Below are positions 2,288 to 8,200 of a DNA stretch of 64,000 bases, one piece after another (within the stretch, counting starts at the first letter, position 1; each line of letters starts with the position of its first letter). Source of the stretch: a virus; IMG/VR virus record IMGVR_UViG_3300001525_000014, positions 32,001-96,000 of that record. One strand, written 5' to 3'. The position numbers and the translations under genes are program-made. Below the pieces are notes generated by a model, which worked only from the letters and a program-made list of their open reading frames with translations, was not told where the DNA came from and did no database searches.

Positions 2288-5200
2288 TTATTTATTACAG
2301 TCGTCCTATCTTCTCTTTCCGAGTTCTTTAAGGTCGTCTTTTATTTCCTATTCATTCTTTACTTTATAATCATTTTTAGAGAACGTCTTCTAATATACAG
2401 CTTTTATTGCATTTGCAGCTTTTAGGGCTTTATCGTATCCTACATACCCTTCTCTATCAACCCACTACCCGTTCTTGTTAACTTTGTAGTTTTGAATATT
2501 TCTAGTACCAACACCAGCAAACGATTTTGTTAATATTGGTGTATCTTCAACTTCAAATTTACCTGTTGATGAATTATACTAATACCAGCTCTCTGTTTTA
2601 AGATCATATACATGTACAGGTTTACCCTGTTTGATGCCAACCTAAACAGCCATATTAGTACCACCTTCTACAGCTTTCTGCGAACTAGTTATATTCGCTA
2701 CAGCAAATACACCATCAGACTTATCTACCTAATAGAAGTCTCTTGCAAGTAATTCTCCACCAATATTATAAGGCAACTCTCTTCCAGTTAACTGCTTTAT
2801 CTACTCTCTTGCATAGTTAGATTGTTCGTGAGTAATTGGGAGAGGCTTAACGTTTTTATCCCTGAGTGTTTTAGACATATTCTGGTTATCTATAGGTCTA
2901 AAATGGTTTATTTTTGTTAAGCCAAACGTTCTACCTATAACATCCCAATAAGTATCGCCACCATAAGCTCCTCCAGAATTAATTGTGTAATCTTGTGGAT
3001 TACCCTGCTATTTGTTGTACAAAGATATAGATTTAAGATAATCCCTCAATGTGGTCATGTATCGATTTGGCTCTAATGCTTTCAATTCAAATTCATTAGC
3101 TTCATGCCAATGGTAATCGCCCCAGTCTGTTCCTGTAATAAAATATTTGCCATCTTTGTATTTAATAGCATATTTAGAAGACCCATACCTTTTGGTTATG
3201 GTATATCTTAAAACGTTATCTCCATCAATTGTGCTATTTTCAAAATCCTTTAACTTATCAGGCTTTACTGGAAATTTATCATACTCTATTTTCTACTCTG
3301 GCTCTGTTCTAGTAAACGCATTATCCTTTAATGATCCATCCTCATTATAATAATTAAGCATCTTATCAGAATTATGATGAGCATAACAATACATACAACT
3401 AGATGCACAGTTAGAATTATACTTTAGAACATCAACTTTGCCACCATAGCAGGTACAAAGTTTACGCTGTTTATTATTATCTTCACCTTTATCTTCTATA
3501 TGCGTACCAAGGATGTTATTAACCTAATCTACAGACAAGCATCCCTATTTGCTTATTCCAGGAATTACTCCAGGTTCAGCACAAGTAGATAATTTAACTC
3601 CATACTTATTTGCTATCTATAACATCTTTTCGGATACACCTTTGACTATTTCTGGTTTAGCATTAGGCTTAAACTCTCCATTAGGAAGCTTCTCATACCC
3701 ATTCTTTTCGTAGTCATAGCCTAAGTTTTTCATAAATATAGAAGTGGTGCGATAATAGTCCATTACTGAGAATTTAACGTTCTTTATTCCTAATTCGGAT
3801 GCTCGCTTAATAAGTGCTTCAACATCTTTAATCTTTGTAACACCAGGAATAATAGGATCAATTCTCAATGTAACCATCTTAGGATCAAGACCTTGCTTAA
3901 TAAACTTTCCTACACGCTCAATCATATCCTACCACTTCATAACACCAGGCTCCCACTTAGTAGCACCAAGAGTAGTTATACTAAAGTGAATAATCTTAGG
4001 CTTTTGAATACTAAGAATTCTTCTCATTGGAAGACCATCATGCTTAGTTATAATATACATAGCATCCATATCGTTAGCAGTAAGAGTGTTTCCTCTATAA
4101 TCCTTCACTGTTGTTTTACCACTAAAGAAACCCTCAAGCTGTTTAGCAAAGAAAGCCGGGTCAGTCTTTTCGGAAGCCACAGCTATTCTCGGCTATTTAT
4201 CATTACCAGTAAATGGGTGTAATGCAAGAATTTCTTCATTAGTAAGAATTGTGTTAGGAGAACTTATGGTCTTCTAAGCATGCTAGAATGATACATTGTG
4301 CGCATTCTTGTGGTCAGTACTTACATATTTAGCCAAATCAACGGTCTTGTCATATAAGTATTTAAATAGCTGAGGCGTACGTTGTTCTGTAATCTAAGAA
4401 ATCTTGCCATTAGATAAACCAGTAGAAGGTAAATATATCTTTCTGTATTTACCCGTATCCCACTCATCCTTAATAGCCTAGAATTCGGCATCTATAACCT
4501 TTTTAAACTCTTCTATATCAGAATCATTCCATCTACCAGCATCTCTCGTTCTACCAGTTAAGGGATCGTACCAATGCTGTGTAGACACAGGCATCGCGTT
4601 ATCCATTCCTCTGATTATAGCAGCTGTAGTATTGGGGAACATCTTGCCAAGTCCATATGTCCTAGCATACTTACTGTCATTACTTATCGGGTTTTTACCA
4701 GATGTCCTGTTCGTGTTGTCACCAAATACATATAATACATCAGGATTATCATTAACCTCCTATCTAGTCCAATTACCTGGATGATATTCAATCTTTCGTT
4801 CAGCTGATTTAGGTAAAGATGGATTTTCTATATCACCAGTATAAGGATTAGCTACAGGAACACTAGATATAACAATAGCGGTCTTTCTTGGTCTAGTTAG
4901 AGCTGTATAAATAAGCTCAGACTTCTCTTGATTTGATGTAGCTGATGTGCCCATTATATCCTTCTCGTCTACTACAACTATATCGTATGTAGAACCCTAA
5001 GATTTATGGGCTGTTATAGCATAACCAAAGTCAATGTCTGCATAACGTCCTTTATACTCCCAGAATTCTTGCCAAGCTTGCCTCTTTAATATTCTATTGG
5101 TCTATCTCTTAGCCTTAGAAGCAAGTTCCTATAGCTTCTGATTATATAGATCAATATCGTTTCTAGAAACAACCTATATAACACAATCTTTTTGTTCATT

Positions 5201-8200
5201 ACCAGTTCTCGTGTAAGCCACACCATTTGTTTCGAGATATAATGTATGTACACCAAACTCGTCAACATCTGTATCCTAAATACCTTTTATTTGTATTTCA
5301 GATGAATTCTCCATAGTAGCTTTAACGTCAGGTAAATCGTAAGGAGCATTAAGGATAAGCATATCGCCCTTAGAGTAGTCAGAATCTTTACCAAACAAAG
5401 CTTCGTGAATTTTCTTGTTTAATTCAGATTTCTCGTTTACATGATATGTTACAATCTTTATGTGGTTTGTAAGACCCTTTTCAACAGCATTCTTTACAGC
5501 TTTAATTACAGAATTTAGAACCTCTCCTTCGCTATTGGAGAACAACAAAGAACCTTTATCTGTTATCTAATTATTTCTAACAATATGTTGAGTAGGGTTA
5601 AGCTCAGGACTTTCTTTTTGTGAGTTTTCCCAGAAGTAGTCCGCATATGGTAATATAGGGTTAGCTTCACCCTATCTTACTCTAGTAATAAGTTTCGACT
5701 TGTGCTTACTATTAAATATATCAGACTTCTTATTTAAAAGATCTTTATGAGTTCTATAGAATTCACTCTAATCATCTCTAATAGGTTGTATTTGACCTAT
5801 ATCACCCAAGAATAACATCTAAAATGGTCTAGAAAGACTAGAATTTATATCAATAATCTTCTTAAGAACATCCTCTGTTATCATTGAAGCCTCATCTATA
5901 ACAAGTAATGCTGGAGGATTATCTAACAAAGGTATTTTTTCACCGACCTAGAATTTGGTTGTCTAAGTATTATTGTCATTGATTCCTTTCATTCCAAGAA
6001 GACCAGCAATGCTAAAGAATTTCTTTCCTCTAGTATCTTCGCCAAAACTATTCTTTATAACGCCTTTAGCTTTATGAGAAACGGCTGCTACATATATCTA
6101 TTCATCCTCAAATTCTTTAAGTATTTCTTTAGCTATAGTAGTTTTACCGGTACCAGCCTTACCTTCTATAACATAATATTGAGTTGGATCAGTATTTGTC
6201 TTTAAGAAAGATACAGCATTTATAATAGCACTCTACTGCTCTTTATTGTAAGTAATACCACCAGATTTACCAGTAGACCTAACTGTTGTTACGTCGGTAT
6301 TTCTTACAGGAGATTCTGTCTTTGTTTCTTTTGGTTCGAGCTTCTTTGCGTCGATATAGAACTTTTGCTTAACATCTTCAATAAGTTTAGCATATTGAGC
6401 CTCGTTTTCTTGATACCCAATATAGTTCATACCAAAGTTAAAATCACTATTGCCAAATTCAAAGATGTCGTTTCCTTTGAAGTGCAAACCTCTCTTCTTA
6501 CATAATACATATATTGGTATTTCGGTTAAGTTTGTACTACCAGTATCTTTATCTTTAACTCCATCAAACTTACTAACACCAACTAATCTATAAAGTGCTC
6601 TGTTTGAGTTGTTGTTATCTTTTGTAGCAAGCTCGTCTTTTACAGTAATATATCTAGGATATTCTCCGTTGTCAAGCCTATTAATAGTTGTAACCCATTC
6701 ACCTTTACCGTTCTATGTATAACCACACAAAGCAAATGGTTTCATCAACTAAGGATCGTATATACCAGAATCTGTAAAATTCTTTTGGTTTTTGCGGATA
6801 TAGTCATACTGTGGTACAAAGTCTGTATCATTCCAGTTGTTTCTAAGTATGTCGTCTATAATAGCGTTTCTTGCATCACTTTCGAGGTTAGTATTAAATT
6901 TGTTTAACCAGAACTCTACATGACCAATAAATCCACTATTTAGCTTCCATGAATTAGGTACATACTTAAAGAATCTGTTAAATCCAGACTTTTCACCAGA
7001 TGTAAGCCATGCATAAACAACGAGATCTCTTGCAAAATCTTTAAGCTCTTGATCATCCGGGTAGTCTAACAATTCCTCCCAGGCATCTGTAAGATCATCT
7101 TGGTTAAACGAAGACTCAGAGATACTGTGGAATGTGCTAACAAATTTAGGAGCCGAATAAATCTAGCCATTATTACCAATAGTTGTTTCATCCTTTACCT
7201 AATCTGATTCTACTAAAGAAGTGAGCAACTTGTTATTTCTAAGATAGAATAACTTGTCATCAGGGTTGTTAATTCTGCGCTTTATATTTGCAAGTCTATC
7301 AGCTATTGTATTGTCACCAAAGAATAGCCTGTTTACATCAATATTGTTATCTCTAGCATAAGCTCTAATAAACAGAGATTTAATACACTGAGATATATTT
7401 CTATCAAGCTTATTTGCAATATCTTCAGTCTAAGAATAATTGTTCATAAACTGTCCAAGTTGACCAGTTAAAGAAGTATAAGAAGTTGTAGCCTCAAATA
7501 CCTGCCCAGCAAGAATACCCTTCATAGCCTTCATAAAACTATTAGTCTTCTTATCAATCCAAGAATGCGTCATCATTCTCATAACACCTTCTGGCTCAAA
7601 TGATGTATTGCCTTCTTGAATATCTTTTAAGAACTAATCATATTTAGCTTTGTAAAGTAATTGTTTAGCAAGTGTGTTACCCTGTTTCTTCGTGTCAATC
7701 TTAGTAAGCTGTACAAGTTTTGAAATATCATTTACAAATGGCTGTAATATATTCCAAGCTTTATAAACCTAAATCTAAGCTTTACAGAAATCTGGGTCTT
7801 TAAGCATATCTTCTTTACTAGTGTATTTAAGAGCATAATTCTTAAGATACTTATCACTCTTAAACATACTGTTTATTATATCAATTCTTCTCTGATCATG
7901 ATTAGTCTCGTTTGTATTAGCAGCATTAATATCAGCATTAATATAGTTAAGCTCTCTACGTATATCAGGGTTATTGTATAGTTCGGAGTCACTTGTAATA
8001 TTAATACCCAAATATCCAGCTATATACTGCCTTAACGCTTTTTCTGTAGCATCCTTTTGTGCTCTATACTTACTCTTGGTTAAGTCTCTACCATAGTGAC
8101 CACTAGCAGACTCTGCAGCAAACGCCATATCCTTTATAATAGGCTATGTAATAAACCACACAGAATTATCTGCCTAGCCTGTTCTAACTAAGAAGTTAAG

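Follow-up and report, generated by a model that had tools for sequence, protein, structure and literature searches.

The C-terminus of the giant RNA polymerase (RNAP) ORF encoded in the DNA of the gut crAss-like phage analysed here (the window: 64,000 nucleotides, positions 32,001 to 96,000 of IMG/VR record IMGVR_UViG_3300001525_000014) carries in its last ~1,320 aa a string of recognisable domains, in the order helicase, DUF7831, DUF1848, 90-aa linker, SLOG and short Cys-containing tail. By analogy with related phages, we consider it on balance probable that this region is a hypervariable 'polyvalent effector' cassette, carried by a packaged RNAP and delivered with the DNA; it would probably act against DNA-targeting and ADP-ribose/nucleotide-based defences. 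Domain coordinates are given in the Met1 numbering of the 6,075-aa protein, paired with window positions; all features lie on the minus strand.

With translation table 11 there are almost no ORFs across the first 26 kb of the window, while reading TAG as sense yields 15 long ORFs, every one on the minus strand. One such frame spans 2288..20539 (6,083 codons) and holds the giant ORF of 6,075 aa at 2288..20515 (ATG at 20515, TAA at 2288-2290), with 124 in-frame TAGs read as Gln. This reading of TAG is based on an alignment with the two closest relatives, in which TAG positions of the window correspond to TAG, CAA or CAG in 61 of ~66 and in 38 of 40 cases. One might suspect an assembly chimera, or separate genes misread through because TAG is a true stop: table-11 gene callers fragment the region into many pieces, and one relative (L005) has a frameshift within DUF1848. 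We regard such an artefact as most improbable, as the 124 TAGs are evenly spread with not one TAA or TGA over 18 kb, they match Gln codons of relatives, dozens of independent contigs contain these same fusions, and dN/dS is ~0.03 over the modules flanking the junction. Moreover, a fusion of the same kind is found with a TAG count of zero in two standard-code relatives (L014 and L017), and is therefore independent of recoding. The initial annotation had described the cassette as fused to a virion RNAP ORF, and the fusion is real: a single TAG-sense frame contains both the cassette and the catalytic DFDID motif. A further large ORF begins at 1..2282 and is truncated by the window edge; it is homologous to cr130_1 gp80 and cr272_1 gp22, hypothetical proteins of 2,074 and 2,281 aa located after the giant ORF. 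The cassette is concealed when an annotation pipeline relies on table 11 or names an ORF after one domain; RefSeq names for several such giant ORFs are taken from the C-terminal domain ('DNA helicase', 'exonuclease V', 'DprA-like').

Some 2,400-3,200 aa of the giant ORF are homologous to the giant ORFs of the crAss phages cr272_1 and cr130_1 (Suoliviridae), the RNAP-homologous region being aa 1507-4698 (6422..15997; blastp 31.8% over 3,192 aa, E = 0). The DFDID motif of crAss-type two-barrel RNAPs, whose catalytic role is described elsewhere (PMC7886860, 10.1101/2020.03.07.982082), occupies aa 3923-3927 (8735..8749); it is also contained in the cr272_1 and cr130_1 ORFs, and its context (GYRIPTQ...TGSDFDIDKL) is kept in 18 relatives. 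The protein thus has the DxDxD motif of a crAss-type virion RNAP (a large transcription-block protein like phi14:2 gp66), and its ORF shares strand and gene block with the major capsid protein. A phmmer search against the PDB gave no match, including to the solved gp66 structure; in the summary of a tblastn search, 2 of the 51 matches are Cellulophaga phage records. A zincin-like HExxH motif, HEAFH (13520..13534), marks a candidate processing protease: it occurs as YHEAFH[RK] in cr118_1, cr130_1 and cr272_1, and a profile search of the region gave no Pfam match.

The first module of the cassette (aa 4757-5229, 4829..6247) is, as judged from its sequence, a complete SF1B Dda/RecD2-like helicase with motifs I, Ia, II, III, IV, V and VI. 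Motif I is GKAGTGKT (aa 4785-4792) and motif II VIDEASM (aa 4872-4878); motifs III (LGDIGQIQP), V (TAHKSQGST) and VI (YTALTRPR) are all present. Both Pfam matches exceed the curated cutoffs (AAA_30, 3.8e-14, 53.3 bits, cutoff 27; UvrD_C_2, 2.5e-12, 46.9 bits, cutoff 27.4), the phage family phrog_325 'Dda-like helicase' is matched at 6.4e-67, and the module can be aligned to 9kwf_B, with further matches to 8jx6 and to Dda (3upu). Orthology to cellular RecD2 was rejected, as the NCBIfam RecD2 score (77 bits) is far below the equivalog cutoff of 500.

The second module had been noted as an unassigned domain at ~4200-4760; a domain is indeed present, but it belongs to a defined Pfam family, DUF7831 (PF25176; aa 5247-5397, 4325..4777; 1.9e-13, 50.7 bits, cutoff 27), with motifs LYVFGDNTNRTSG and IRGMDNAMPVST. 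All 198 profile matches in the DUF7831 search were to PF25176. The fold resembles that of BFVD 'DUF7831' proteins, while no solved structure resembles the confident model (pLDDT 95). Stand-alone DUF7831 genes occur on phage-like contigs in blocks of small genes, adjoining a UvrD-type helicase, a dNMP kinase and metallophosphatases.

The third module is DUF1848 (PF08902; aa 5461-5737, 3305..4135), as first proposed: it matches profile positions 24-262 of 262 at 3.1e-24 (86.6 bits, cutoff 30.5). Its cysteine motifs are CxxxCxxC (3386-3409) and CxC (3437-3457), together with TCAE (3575-3586); the CxxxCxxC and the module's C190, C204, C232 and C234 show no variation across 10 diverse sequences. 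The CxxxCxxC lies at the C-terminus, and matches on the radical-SAM side are weak (PA0069 rSAM, 1.2e-3, 18 bits, cutoff 360), as is that to phrog_9252 'DNA repair photolyase' (1.8e-4); no match was found among PDB sequences. The same Pfam family includes the DUF1848 protein associated with the UG25 DRT (PADLOC RTasDUF1848, full-length match 3.4e-29; PMC9226505), which, unlike the phage copy, serves the host as an accessory to a methylase-reverse transcriptase defence system. This sole link of DUF1848 to defence is on the side of the host, and counts against a counter-defence reading.

A linker or mini-domain of ~90 aa (aa 5746-5835, 3011..3280), missing or substituted in close relatives, precedes the SLOG-superfamily Rossmannoid module (aa 5840-6045, 2381..2998), whose motifs are NSGGAYGGD, GGTNMAVQ and FAGVGTR. 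The module matches phrog_768 'DprA-like' (1.5e-10); the window copy has no Pfam match at E<=1, whereas copies from relatives give similarly weak matches to cpYpsA, DprA, nucleoside 2-deoxyribosyltransferase (NDT), LDcluster4 and YAcAr, all sub-threshold matches being confined to SLOG-type families. The S-G-G-A-x-G-x-D and G-G-T loops are invariant, and the model is an alternating beta/alpha fold (pLDDT >90) with no significant structural neighbour in the PDB. On sequence and model, then, the module belongs to the SLOG superfamily, and the label SLOG/DprA-like that it had received holds at the superfamily level only. DprA itself (PF02481, DNA_processg_A) was rejected: the best match among relatives is 9.6e-3, no stronger than those to cpYpsA or NDT, and neither profile nor fold searches retrieved a DprA structure. 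The protein ends in a conserved tail (aa 6046-6075, 2291..2380, ...KELGKRRQDDCNK), retained regardless of the module that precedes it.

Thus profile searches support all four domains, DUF7831 included, and the positions reported for them at the outset agree with the re-derived ones within a few tens of bases. All tested modules are under strong purifying selection, with dN/dS of 0.02-0.07 in every one of them versus 0.03 in the RNAP core; therefore they are functional coding sequence, and chance similarity is excluded.

The composition of the cassette is highly variable among relatives. In a survey seeded with the RNAP, which left 51 distinct Suoliviridae-type C-termini after dereplication, we looked for five modules (helicase, DUF7831, DUF1848, SLOG and NADAR): at least one is present in 30 of the 51, in 16 architectures, and none in the other 21. 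The helicase is found in only 11; it directly follows the RNAP in the window, in cr118_1 and in many survey loci, and takes the last place, behind DUF1848/NADAR, in L014 and L017. The commonest two-module architecture is SLOG-NADAR; NADAR, which matches YbiA and NADAR structures in the relatives, was not found in the window sequence. Loci collected with DUF1848 as seed show ~15 orders of the same modules, always in frame with the RNAP. Fragments ~90% identical to the window differ from it by exact insertions or deletions of whole domains, and cr124_1, whose capsid protein is 98% identical to that of the window phage, has no module at all. We conclude that the slot is a plug-and-play site: phages that are otherwise nearly identical have acquired, dropped or rearranged entire domains there, a turnover that matches the expectation for an arms-race locus. 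The modules also recur outside this setting. The N4-type virion RNAP of the Klebsiella phage Pylas contains, at ~aa 983-1160, an inserted domain of this SLOG family (41% identity), so that the recurrence involves two unrelated virion RNAPs, crAss-type and N4-type. In IAS virus, DUF7831 and a cpYpsA-SLOG form a separate 837-aa protein encoded directly upstream of the RNAP genes.

Modular shuffling, the SLOG domain in an unrelated N4-type virion RNAP and the presence of RNAP-block proteins in crAss001 virions together provide strong comparative backing, and suggest by analogy that the window protein delivers a pre-made toolkit. In the homologous block of crAss001 the virion location has been demonstrated, gp45, gp46, gp47, gp49 and gp50 having been detected in virions (PMC10172136), and phi14:2 gp66 is likewise virion-borne (10.1101/2020.03.07.982082); packaging of the window protein is extrapolated from these other crAss families to the Suoliviridae. 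According to our proposal, a variable effector cassette of ~1,320 residues has been inserted where the body of the virion RNAP polyprotein meets a short, conserved tail at the C-terminus. The giant protein would be synthesized late and loaded into the capsid as cargo. Its ejection would precede or accompany that of the DNA, and its C-terminal enzymes would therefore be in the new host ahead of any phage gene expression. There the helicase may load on the entering DNA, stripping host proteins and/or exposing single strands; DUF1848, whose Cys cluster goes with a remote similarity to radical-SAM 'DNA repair photolyases' of the SP-lyase type, may be an enzyme that acts on DNA; SLOG and DUF7831 (with NADAR in relatives) may bind or cleave ADP-ribose/nucleotide adducts or host immune signals. 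NADARs reverse the guanine ADP-ribosylation produced by DarT1, and phage NADARs neutralise DarTG1 (PMC11543638, PMC11257639); an independent prediction has viral combinations of SLOG with NADAR/Macro counteracting immune signals derived from ADPr (PMC9503650). For the window this link to ADP-ribose is indirect, because NADAR is absent from it. A further point against the proposal is that crAss cargo is thought to be partly unfolded during passage through the tail (PMC10172136): a [4Fe-4S]-type cluster of DUF1848 would not survive this and would need reassembly in the host.

A bolder version of the proposal, which we put forward only tentatively, is that the C-terminus of Suoliviridae RNAPs is a dedicated, fast-recombining slot for the injection of ready-made enzymes, with the tail as packaging or anchoring signal and with DUF1848 and DUF7831 as new counter-defence enzymes. 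DUF1848 would then be a C-terminally permuted radical-SAM-like Fe-S enzyme and DUF7831 a virus-restricted fold, also present in giant eukaryotic viruses; their targets would be modified DNA or nucleotides derived from ADP-ribose.

Two other roles for the cassette must be weighed. The fused helicase, taken alone, could equally well serve transcription: perhaps with SLOG as a DprA-like ssDNA binder, it would melt the dsDNA genome and feed a single-stranded template to the fused RNAP, making the cassette a component of the early transcription machine rather than a counter-defence device. Dda/RecD2-type SF1B helicases translocate on ssDNA, and the helicase of the window and of many relatives adjoins the RNAP. 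Moreover, phi14:2 gp66 is efficient on single-stranded or denatured DNA and poor on double-stranded DNA, and its eukaryotic homolog QDE-1 requires the helicase QDE-3 and RPA (10.1101/2020.03.07.982082). However, with a helicase in only 11 of the 51 C-termini and no modules in 21, the phage with the nearly identical capsid protein among them, it is not generally required for RNAP function; it stands last, behind DUF1848/NADAR, in L014 and L017, SLOG is equally distant from the DprA, YpsA and NDT families, and DUF1848, DUF7831 and NADAR are left unexplained. We therefore regard this role as unlikely for the cassette as a whole. We give somewhat less credence still to the idea that the modules are active in the late phase of the preceding infection, in repair, modification or processing of phage DNA before or during packaging, or in replication/recombination, being cut from the polyprotein by a protease and not delivered to the next host. 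A zincin-like protease would do the cutting according to Drobysheva et al., who regard fused ORFs of this kind as 'likely cleaved into individual components', and the conserved HEAFH motif would agree with this; an Fe-S enzyme is more plausible in the cell in which it folds, and TAG recoding links expression of the ORF to a late, suppressor-dependent phase (PMC7886860, PMC10136315). On the other hand, the modules are enclosed between the RNAP body and a tail that is retained with any set of modules, which argues that they accompany the packaged protein; the SLOG domain of this family is internal in the Pylas RNAP, and N4 vRNAP is packaged unprocessed (PMC5512222); and the replication genes of these phages are separate ORFs on the opposite strand.

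The proposal of an injected effector cassette can be placed in the light of the 'polyvalent proteins' of Iyer, Burroughs, Anand, de Souza and Aravind (2017, PMC5512222), whose prototype is the N4-like virion RNAP fused to a zincin MPTase and ART, lysozyme or PBECR RNase domains. The general concept is therefore already published, RefSeq names exist for such ORFs, and the novelty first claimed for the combination has to be narrowed accordingly: we found no paper on the cassette, and no description in the accessible literature of this carrier, this guild of modules and their shuffling together. Polyvalent proteins combine 2-15 unrelated domains encoded with virion genes, in variable architectures; here there are an RNAP and four recognisable modules, and the 51 C-termini vary as described above. 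Common to both are a very large virion-block protein with an early-acting polymerase and several unrelated enzymatic domains, an HExxH motif, a domain set that varies among relatives, and predicted injection with the DNA. The carrier, however, is a crAss two-barrel (DxDxD) RNAP instead of the T7-like N4 polymerase, and the modules (Dda-like SF1B helicase, DUF1848, DUF7831, SLOG, and NADAR in relatives) are, unlike those of PMC5512222, confined to one slot before the tail; the text of that paper has no match for DUF1848, radical SAM, SLOG, NADAR or SF1. Characterised crAss-like phages share the gene block and the DxDxD motif (phi14:2 gp65-gp67; crAss001 gp45-gp50), and the fused giant ORF of some was earlier described as 'a single huge polyprotein', but they are without the C-terminal enzyme cassette. 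The cassette also resembles phage P1 DarB, a capsid-packaged multidomain helicase protein that guards the injected DNA in cis (PMC5512222); DarB has an SF2-type helicase and a methylase and no polymerase, whereas the cassette has no methylase. Finally, NADAR and YpsA-like SLOG recur together in DNA viruses, as orphan phage NADAR/DarG-like antitoxins and viral SLOG-NADAR-Macro sets used, or predicted, to reverse ADP-ribose-based defence (PMC11257639, PMC11543638, PMC9503650). Those genes stand alone, early or head-associated, while here the domains are fused to the RNAP and the window has SLOG but no NADAR.

Among the viruses of the human gut, crAss-like phages rank first in abundance, and they have to defeat the defences of Bacteroidota; a search by Yutin et al. 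for anti-CRISPRs revealed none. A slot on an ejected polymerase that is repeatedly refilled would be a natural catalogue of the proteins needed in the first seconds of infection. It would give two orphan families, DUF1848 and DUF7831, and a SLOG family a functional context, namely action at time zero, either on the DNA that enters or on nucleotide signals, and tie them to NADAR, whose role against DarT is proven. That an N4-type virion RNAP has a domain of this SLOG family hints at a more general principle, by which virion polymerases would be carriers of effectors.

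Under the standard bacterial code the window's first 26 kb show just three ORFs of 150 aa or more; with TAG taken as a sense codon 15 long ORFs emerge, each on the minus strand, among them a single frame of 6,083 codons at 2288..20539. From its first ATG (20515) to a TAA stop (2288-2290, minus strand) this giant ORF encodes 6,075 aa; in-frame TAGs, 124 in all, are distributed evenly along it, and TAA and TGA do not occur within it. The entire 64-kb window is recoded in this way, and a search of it for tRNAs, suppressor tRNAs included, returned none. Since 61 of about 66 and 38 of 40 aligned TAG codons of the window face TAG, CAA or CAG in the two nearest relatives, and since reassignment of TAG to Gln is documented in the delta-group (Suoliviridae) crAss-like phages (PMC7886860, PMC10136315), TAG is read here as Gln. 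cr124_1 and cr7_1 (Suoliviridae, Oafivirinae) have major capsid proteins 98% identical to that of the window (49534-51075, minus strand).

crAss virion RNAPs are recognized by a DxDxD motif in a giant 'transcription block' protein (PMC7886860; 10.1101/2020.03.07.982082). In the giant ORF the motif is DFDID (aa 3923, window 8735-8749, minus strand), inside a GYRIPTQ...TGSDFDIDKL block highly conserved with 18 relatives; alignments over approximately 2,400-3,200 aa link the ORF to its giant counterparts in the crAss-like phages cr272_1 (6,386 aa) and cr130_1 (5,801 aa), both of which have DFDID as well. A phmmer comparison of the RNAP core with PDB gave no match to the solved phi14:2 gp66; crAss-type polymerases are reported to be extremely divergent, and this result fits that divergence. 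Pfam gave no match in the N-terminal 4,780 aa. A HEAFH (HExxH) motif at 13520-13534 (minus strand), which matches no Pfam model but recurs as YHEAFH[RK] in cr118_1, cr130_1 and cr272_1, is consistent with the zincin-like protease described in the crAss RNAP block and in the N4 vRNAP. As a separate observation, a relative whose RNAP is 96% identical to that of the window (L009, IMGVR_UViG_3300013947_000026) has a group I intron at 5227-6062 that interrupts the codons for the catalytic DFDID: the ORF upstream of it runs as far as ...TGSD before its frame is lost, and Rfam RF00028 matches the 5' part with 49.8 bits (E 2.7e-11) and the 3' part with E 2.4e-4. A frame break 74-115 codons past the start of the catalytic block was seen in 8 of the 80 loci of the RNAP-seeded survey described below.

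The last 1,320 or so residues of the giant ORF form a cassette, for which the initial annotation had proposed a helicase, a DUF1848 and a SLOG-type domain; profile searches bore out these calls. The helicase (aa 4757-5229, window 4829-6247, all modules being on the minus strand) matches AAA_30 and UvrD_C_2 above the Pfam cutoffs and phrog_325 'Dda-like helicase' with 6.4e-67; motifs I-VI are all present, as expected of the complete SF1 RecD/Dda-like enzyme that had been claimed, and the nearest solved chains are 9kwf_B, 8jx6_A and Dda 3upu. The domain that had been left unassigned is DUF7831 (PF25176, 50.7 bits versus a cutoff of 27; aa 5247-5397, window 4325-4777). It is followed by DUF1848 (PF08902, 86.6 bits versus a cutoff of 30.5; aa 5461-5737, window 3305-4135), in which a CxxxCxxC motif and four further cysteines are invariant in an alignment of 10 diverse copies. 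Hints to the chemistry of DUF1848 are limited to a weak resemblance to the radical-SAM group of PA0069 / 'DNA repair photolyase', the name 'DNA repair photolyase' that IMG gives to three of its homologs, and a full-length match (3.4e-29) to the PADLOC family RTasDUF1848, which accompanies UG25 defence reverse transcriptases as an accessory protein (PMC9226505). A linker of approximately 90 aa (aa 5746-5835) leads to the SLOG-type domain (aa 5840-6045, window 2381-2998), and a tail of 30 aa (window 2291-2380) ends the protein. The SLOG-type domain has no Pfam model and matches phrog_768 'DprA-like' with 1.5e-10. Because the weak Pfam matches of 11 diverse relatives are spread over cpYpsA (5), DprA (5), nucleoside 2-deoxyribosyltransferase (4), LDcluster4 and YAcAr, and because the motifs SGGAxGxD, R..Q...D, GGT and FAGxGTR are invariant, the domain is a SLOG-superfamily Rossmannoid; the superfamily part of the earlier SLOG/DprA-like assignment thus stands, while specific membership in DprA is rejected. 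The possibility that the modules recur at another place in the window was likewise considered and rejected.

Nei-Gojobori dN/dS values against the closest relatives, calculated with TAG counted as a Gln codon, are 0.02-0.03 for the helicase, 0.03 for DUF7831, 0.05-0.07 for DUF1848, 0.05-0.06 for SLOG and 0.03 for the RNAP core; as dS is near saturation these ratios are approximate, but all are still far below 1. On this codon-level evidence the modules are functional.

Structure models were made on TAG-free homologous fragments as stand-ins for the window modules. Searches of PDB sequences with DUF1848, DUF7831 and SLOG, both single-sequence and profile, gave nothing real; a match to a designed PPR was rejected, as no stretch passes alone. 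One fragment, P0006, is approximately 90% identical to the window over the end of the helicase, DUF7831 and SLOG, and additionally contains a NADAR insert. In its model the SLOG part has pLDDT >90 and NADAR 60-90; Foldseek against PDB recovered only NADAR (YbiA 2b3w and NADAR with ADPr 8bau, target TM 0.64-0.72) and gave no significant neighbour for the SLOG part. P0072, a DUF7831 protein that stands alone and shares 49% identity with the module of the window, was modelled with pLDDT 95.2 and pTM 0.89; it likewise has no significant neighbour in PDB (best E = 0.2, TM <= 0.32), and in the viral model library BFVD it matches other DUF7831 proteins only. These matches are segments of the giant proteins of cr131_1, cr130_1 and cr272_1, and proteins of the giant eukaryotic viruses Tupanvirus, Hyperionvirus and Yasminevirus, of Caulobacter phage Seuss and of a Rhizobium phage. 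Since a PDB neighbour is absent and the viral matches are confined to DUF7831, DUF7831 is a virus-associated orphan fold.

Among metagenomic fragments approximately 90% identical to the window, differences consist of whole-domain events. In P0006 DUF7831 is joined straight to SLOG, without DUF1848, and NADAR is inserted ahead of the tail; NADAR is inserted also in P0011 and P0013, and further fragments show reversed orders (DUF1848-helicase, DUF1848-DUF7831, SLOG-DUF1848). In IMG/VR loci seeded with DUF1848 and read with TAG awareness, practically all crAss-sized contigs have the module set in frame with the C-terminal region of the RNAP, and the module order differs almost every time; two of these loci (L014, L017) have zero TAG. 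A survey seeded with the RNAP confirmed at least 495 relatives; module HMMs, with the genetic code detected separately for each locus, were applied to the best 80 and yielded 71 intact ORFs in 51 clusters at 95% identity. In these best 80 of at least 495, at least one of the five modules (the four of the window and NADAR) occurs in 30 of the 51 clusters (59%), in 16 architectures: SLOG in 20 clusters, NADAR in 12, the helicase in 11, DUF7831 in 7 and DUF1848 in 6. The remaining 21 have none of the five, and most of them stop shortly past the RNAP core; a few module-less ORFs run on with long unassigned sequence. The giant ORF of cr124_1 has no module, and a megablast of 2288-8000 against INPHARED (50,697 phage records) gave no match. 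Despite the 98% identity of the capsid proteins, the RNAP core (6422-15997) is only approximately 34% identical to that of cr124_1; compared with the structural genes, the RNAP block is extremely mosaic or divergent.

Other occupants of the slot were seen in L080, L096, L083, L073, L064, L106, L044 and L102. One is a genuine cpYpsA SLOG (2.8e-23); another, seen repeatedly, is a second HExxH module (LLHEYIHV...) that has a weak SprT-like match. There are also a module with a 'GNPF...PSHAT' motif, a module marked by 'VFTEN...IVVKKYQQ' with a motif pattern like that of DUF7831, and several stretches of 300-800 aa without assignment. Whatever the last module, the giant ORF almost always ends with a short charged helix and then a Cys 1-7 residues from the end (...RRQDDCNK, ...KKHCKN, ...NHCKGGK, ...KYCKGGN, ...NECNG, ...LHCKGK, ...ELPCK, in a comparison of window 2291-2380 with L003, L004, L007-L027, L037 and L038); this ending may be an encapsidation or anchoring tag. 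In a standard-code locus (L020, 1604-10225 of IMGVR_UViG_3300035498_000142) NADAR-DUF1848-SLOG is at the N-terminus of a 2,873-aa ORF upstream of an ORF with RNAP similarity, so a different large protein of the block can also carry the cassette. In the nearest relative with the same module order (L005, IMGVR_UViG_3300045988_021123) a +1 frameshift at about 11166 falls inside DUF1848, and DUF1848-SLOG-NADAR-tail is read on in the frame that follows. An assembly error, decay to a pseudogene or programmed frameshifting could explain it.

The modules also occur beyond Suoliviridae. A SLOG copy 41% identical to that of the window is found at approximately aa 983-1160 of the 3,819-aa virion RNAP of Klebsiella phage Pylas (Schitoviridae; gp65, L039 ~12001-12531), just before the polymerase domain; Pfam does not recognize this copy, and vRNAP_dom_2 confirms the N4-type polymerase. 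Whether Crassvirales carry the domains as separate genes beside the RNAP block had been asked; in IAS virus (Steigviridae) DUF7831 and a cpYpsA SLOG (7e-27) indeed form a separate 837-aa protein directly upstream of the RNAP genes. Stand-alone DUF7831 genes of approximately 154 aa are numerous (198 profile matches), and in phage-like contigs they lie among small genes adjoining a UvrD-type helicase, dNMP kinase and metallophosphatases. RefSeq titles several of the giant RNAP ORFs by their one recognizable C-terminal domain: 'exonuclease V' for cr118_1 gp14, a 4,946-aa CDS combining RNAP core and helicase, 'DNA helicase' for cr124_1 and cr50_1, and 'DprA-like' for cr130_1, cr113_1 and cr109_1.

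These results can be considered in the light of what is known of virion polymerases. The crAss RNAP-block proteins are capsid cargo by mass spectrometry and are thought to be ejected ahead of the DNA, partly unfolded (PMC10172136), and phi14:2 gp66 is the enzyme that transcribes the early genes (10.1101/2020.03.07.982082). Among injected 'polyvalent proteins', the N4-type virion RNAP fused to a zincin peptidase, ART, lysozyme or RNase is the prototype (PMC5512222). By analogy, the C-terminal 1,320 aa would be a polyvalent effector cassette that the RNAP brings into the cell, with the helicase and DUF1848 presumably acting on the entering DNA, and SLOG and DUF7831 (with NADAR in relatives) on ADP-ribose/nucleotide adducts or signals. 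NADAR strips ADP-ribose off DNA guanines, and NADARs encoded by phages neutralise DarTG1 (PMC11543638, PMC11257639); viral YpsA-like SLOGs co-occur with NADAR/Macro and are predicted destroyers of ADPr-derived immune signals (PMC9503650). An accessory role in an arms race is suggested by the shuffling, by presence or absence in near-identical phages and by the occurrence in two unrelated virion polymerases. Packaging and every activity of the window protein are inferences, and the protein may or may not be cleaved; delivery faces a real difficulty, in that an Fe-S cluster must survive passage through the tail or be rebuilt afterwards.

An assembly or recoding error as the source of the fusion is excluded by the TAG-Gln alignment, the dN/dS values, the same fusions in other loci and the zero-TAG loci. 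The helicase may instead serve the polymerase, as gp66 prefers single-stranded templates and QDE-1, its homolog in eukaryotes, depends on a helicase and RPA; however, among the best 80 of at least 495 relatives a helicase is present in only 11 of 51 C-termini and 21 have no module, and the other domains would be left unexplained. The modules may also act in the producer cell and be cut off before packaging, but the cassette sits between the RNAP body and the conserved tail, and in the Pylas vRNAP the SLOG is internal.

Polyvalent virion proteins and giant multidomain crAss transcription proteins are already known as a kind. In the searchable literature we did not find this cassette on a crAss RNAP, the guild of five modules with DUF1848 and DUF7831 among them, its extensive shuffling, or a SLOG family common to the crAss RNAP and N4-type vRNAP. 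Partial earlier recognition is likely, because a figure of Yutin et al. presents 'recognized conserved domains' and databases carry names for single domains. The interest of the cassette is that it nominates orphan enzyme families as candidate time-zero effectors in the dominant group of gut phages, a proposal that is directly testable.
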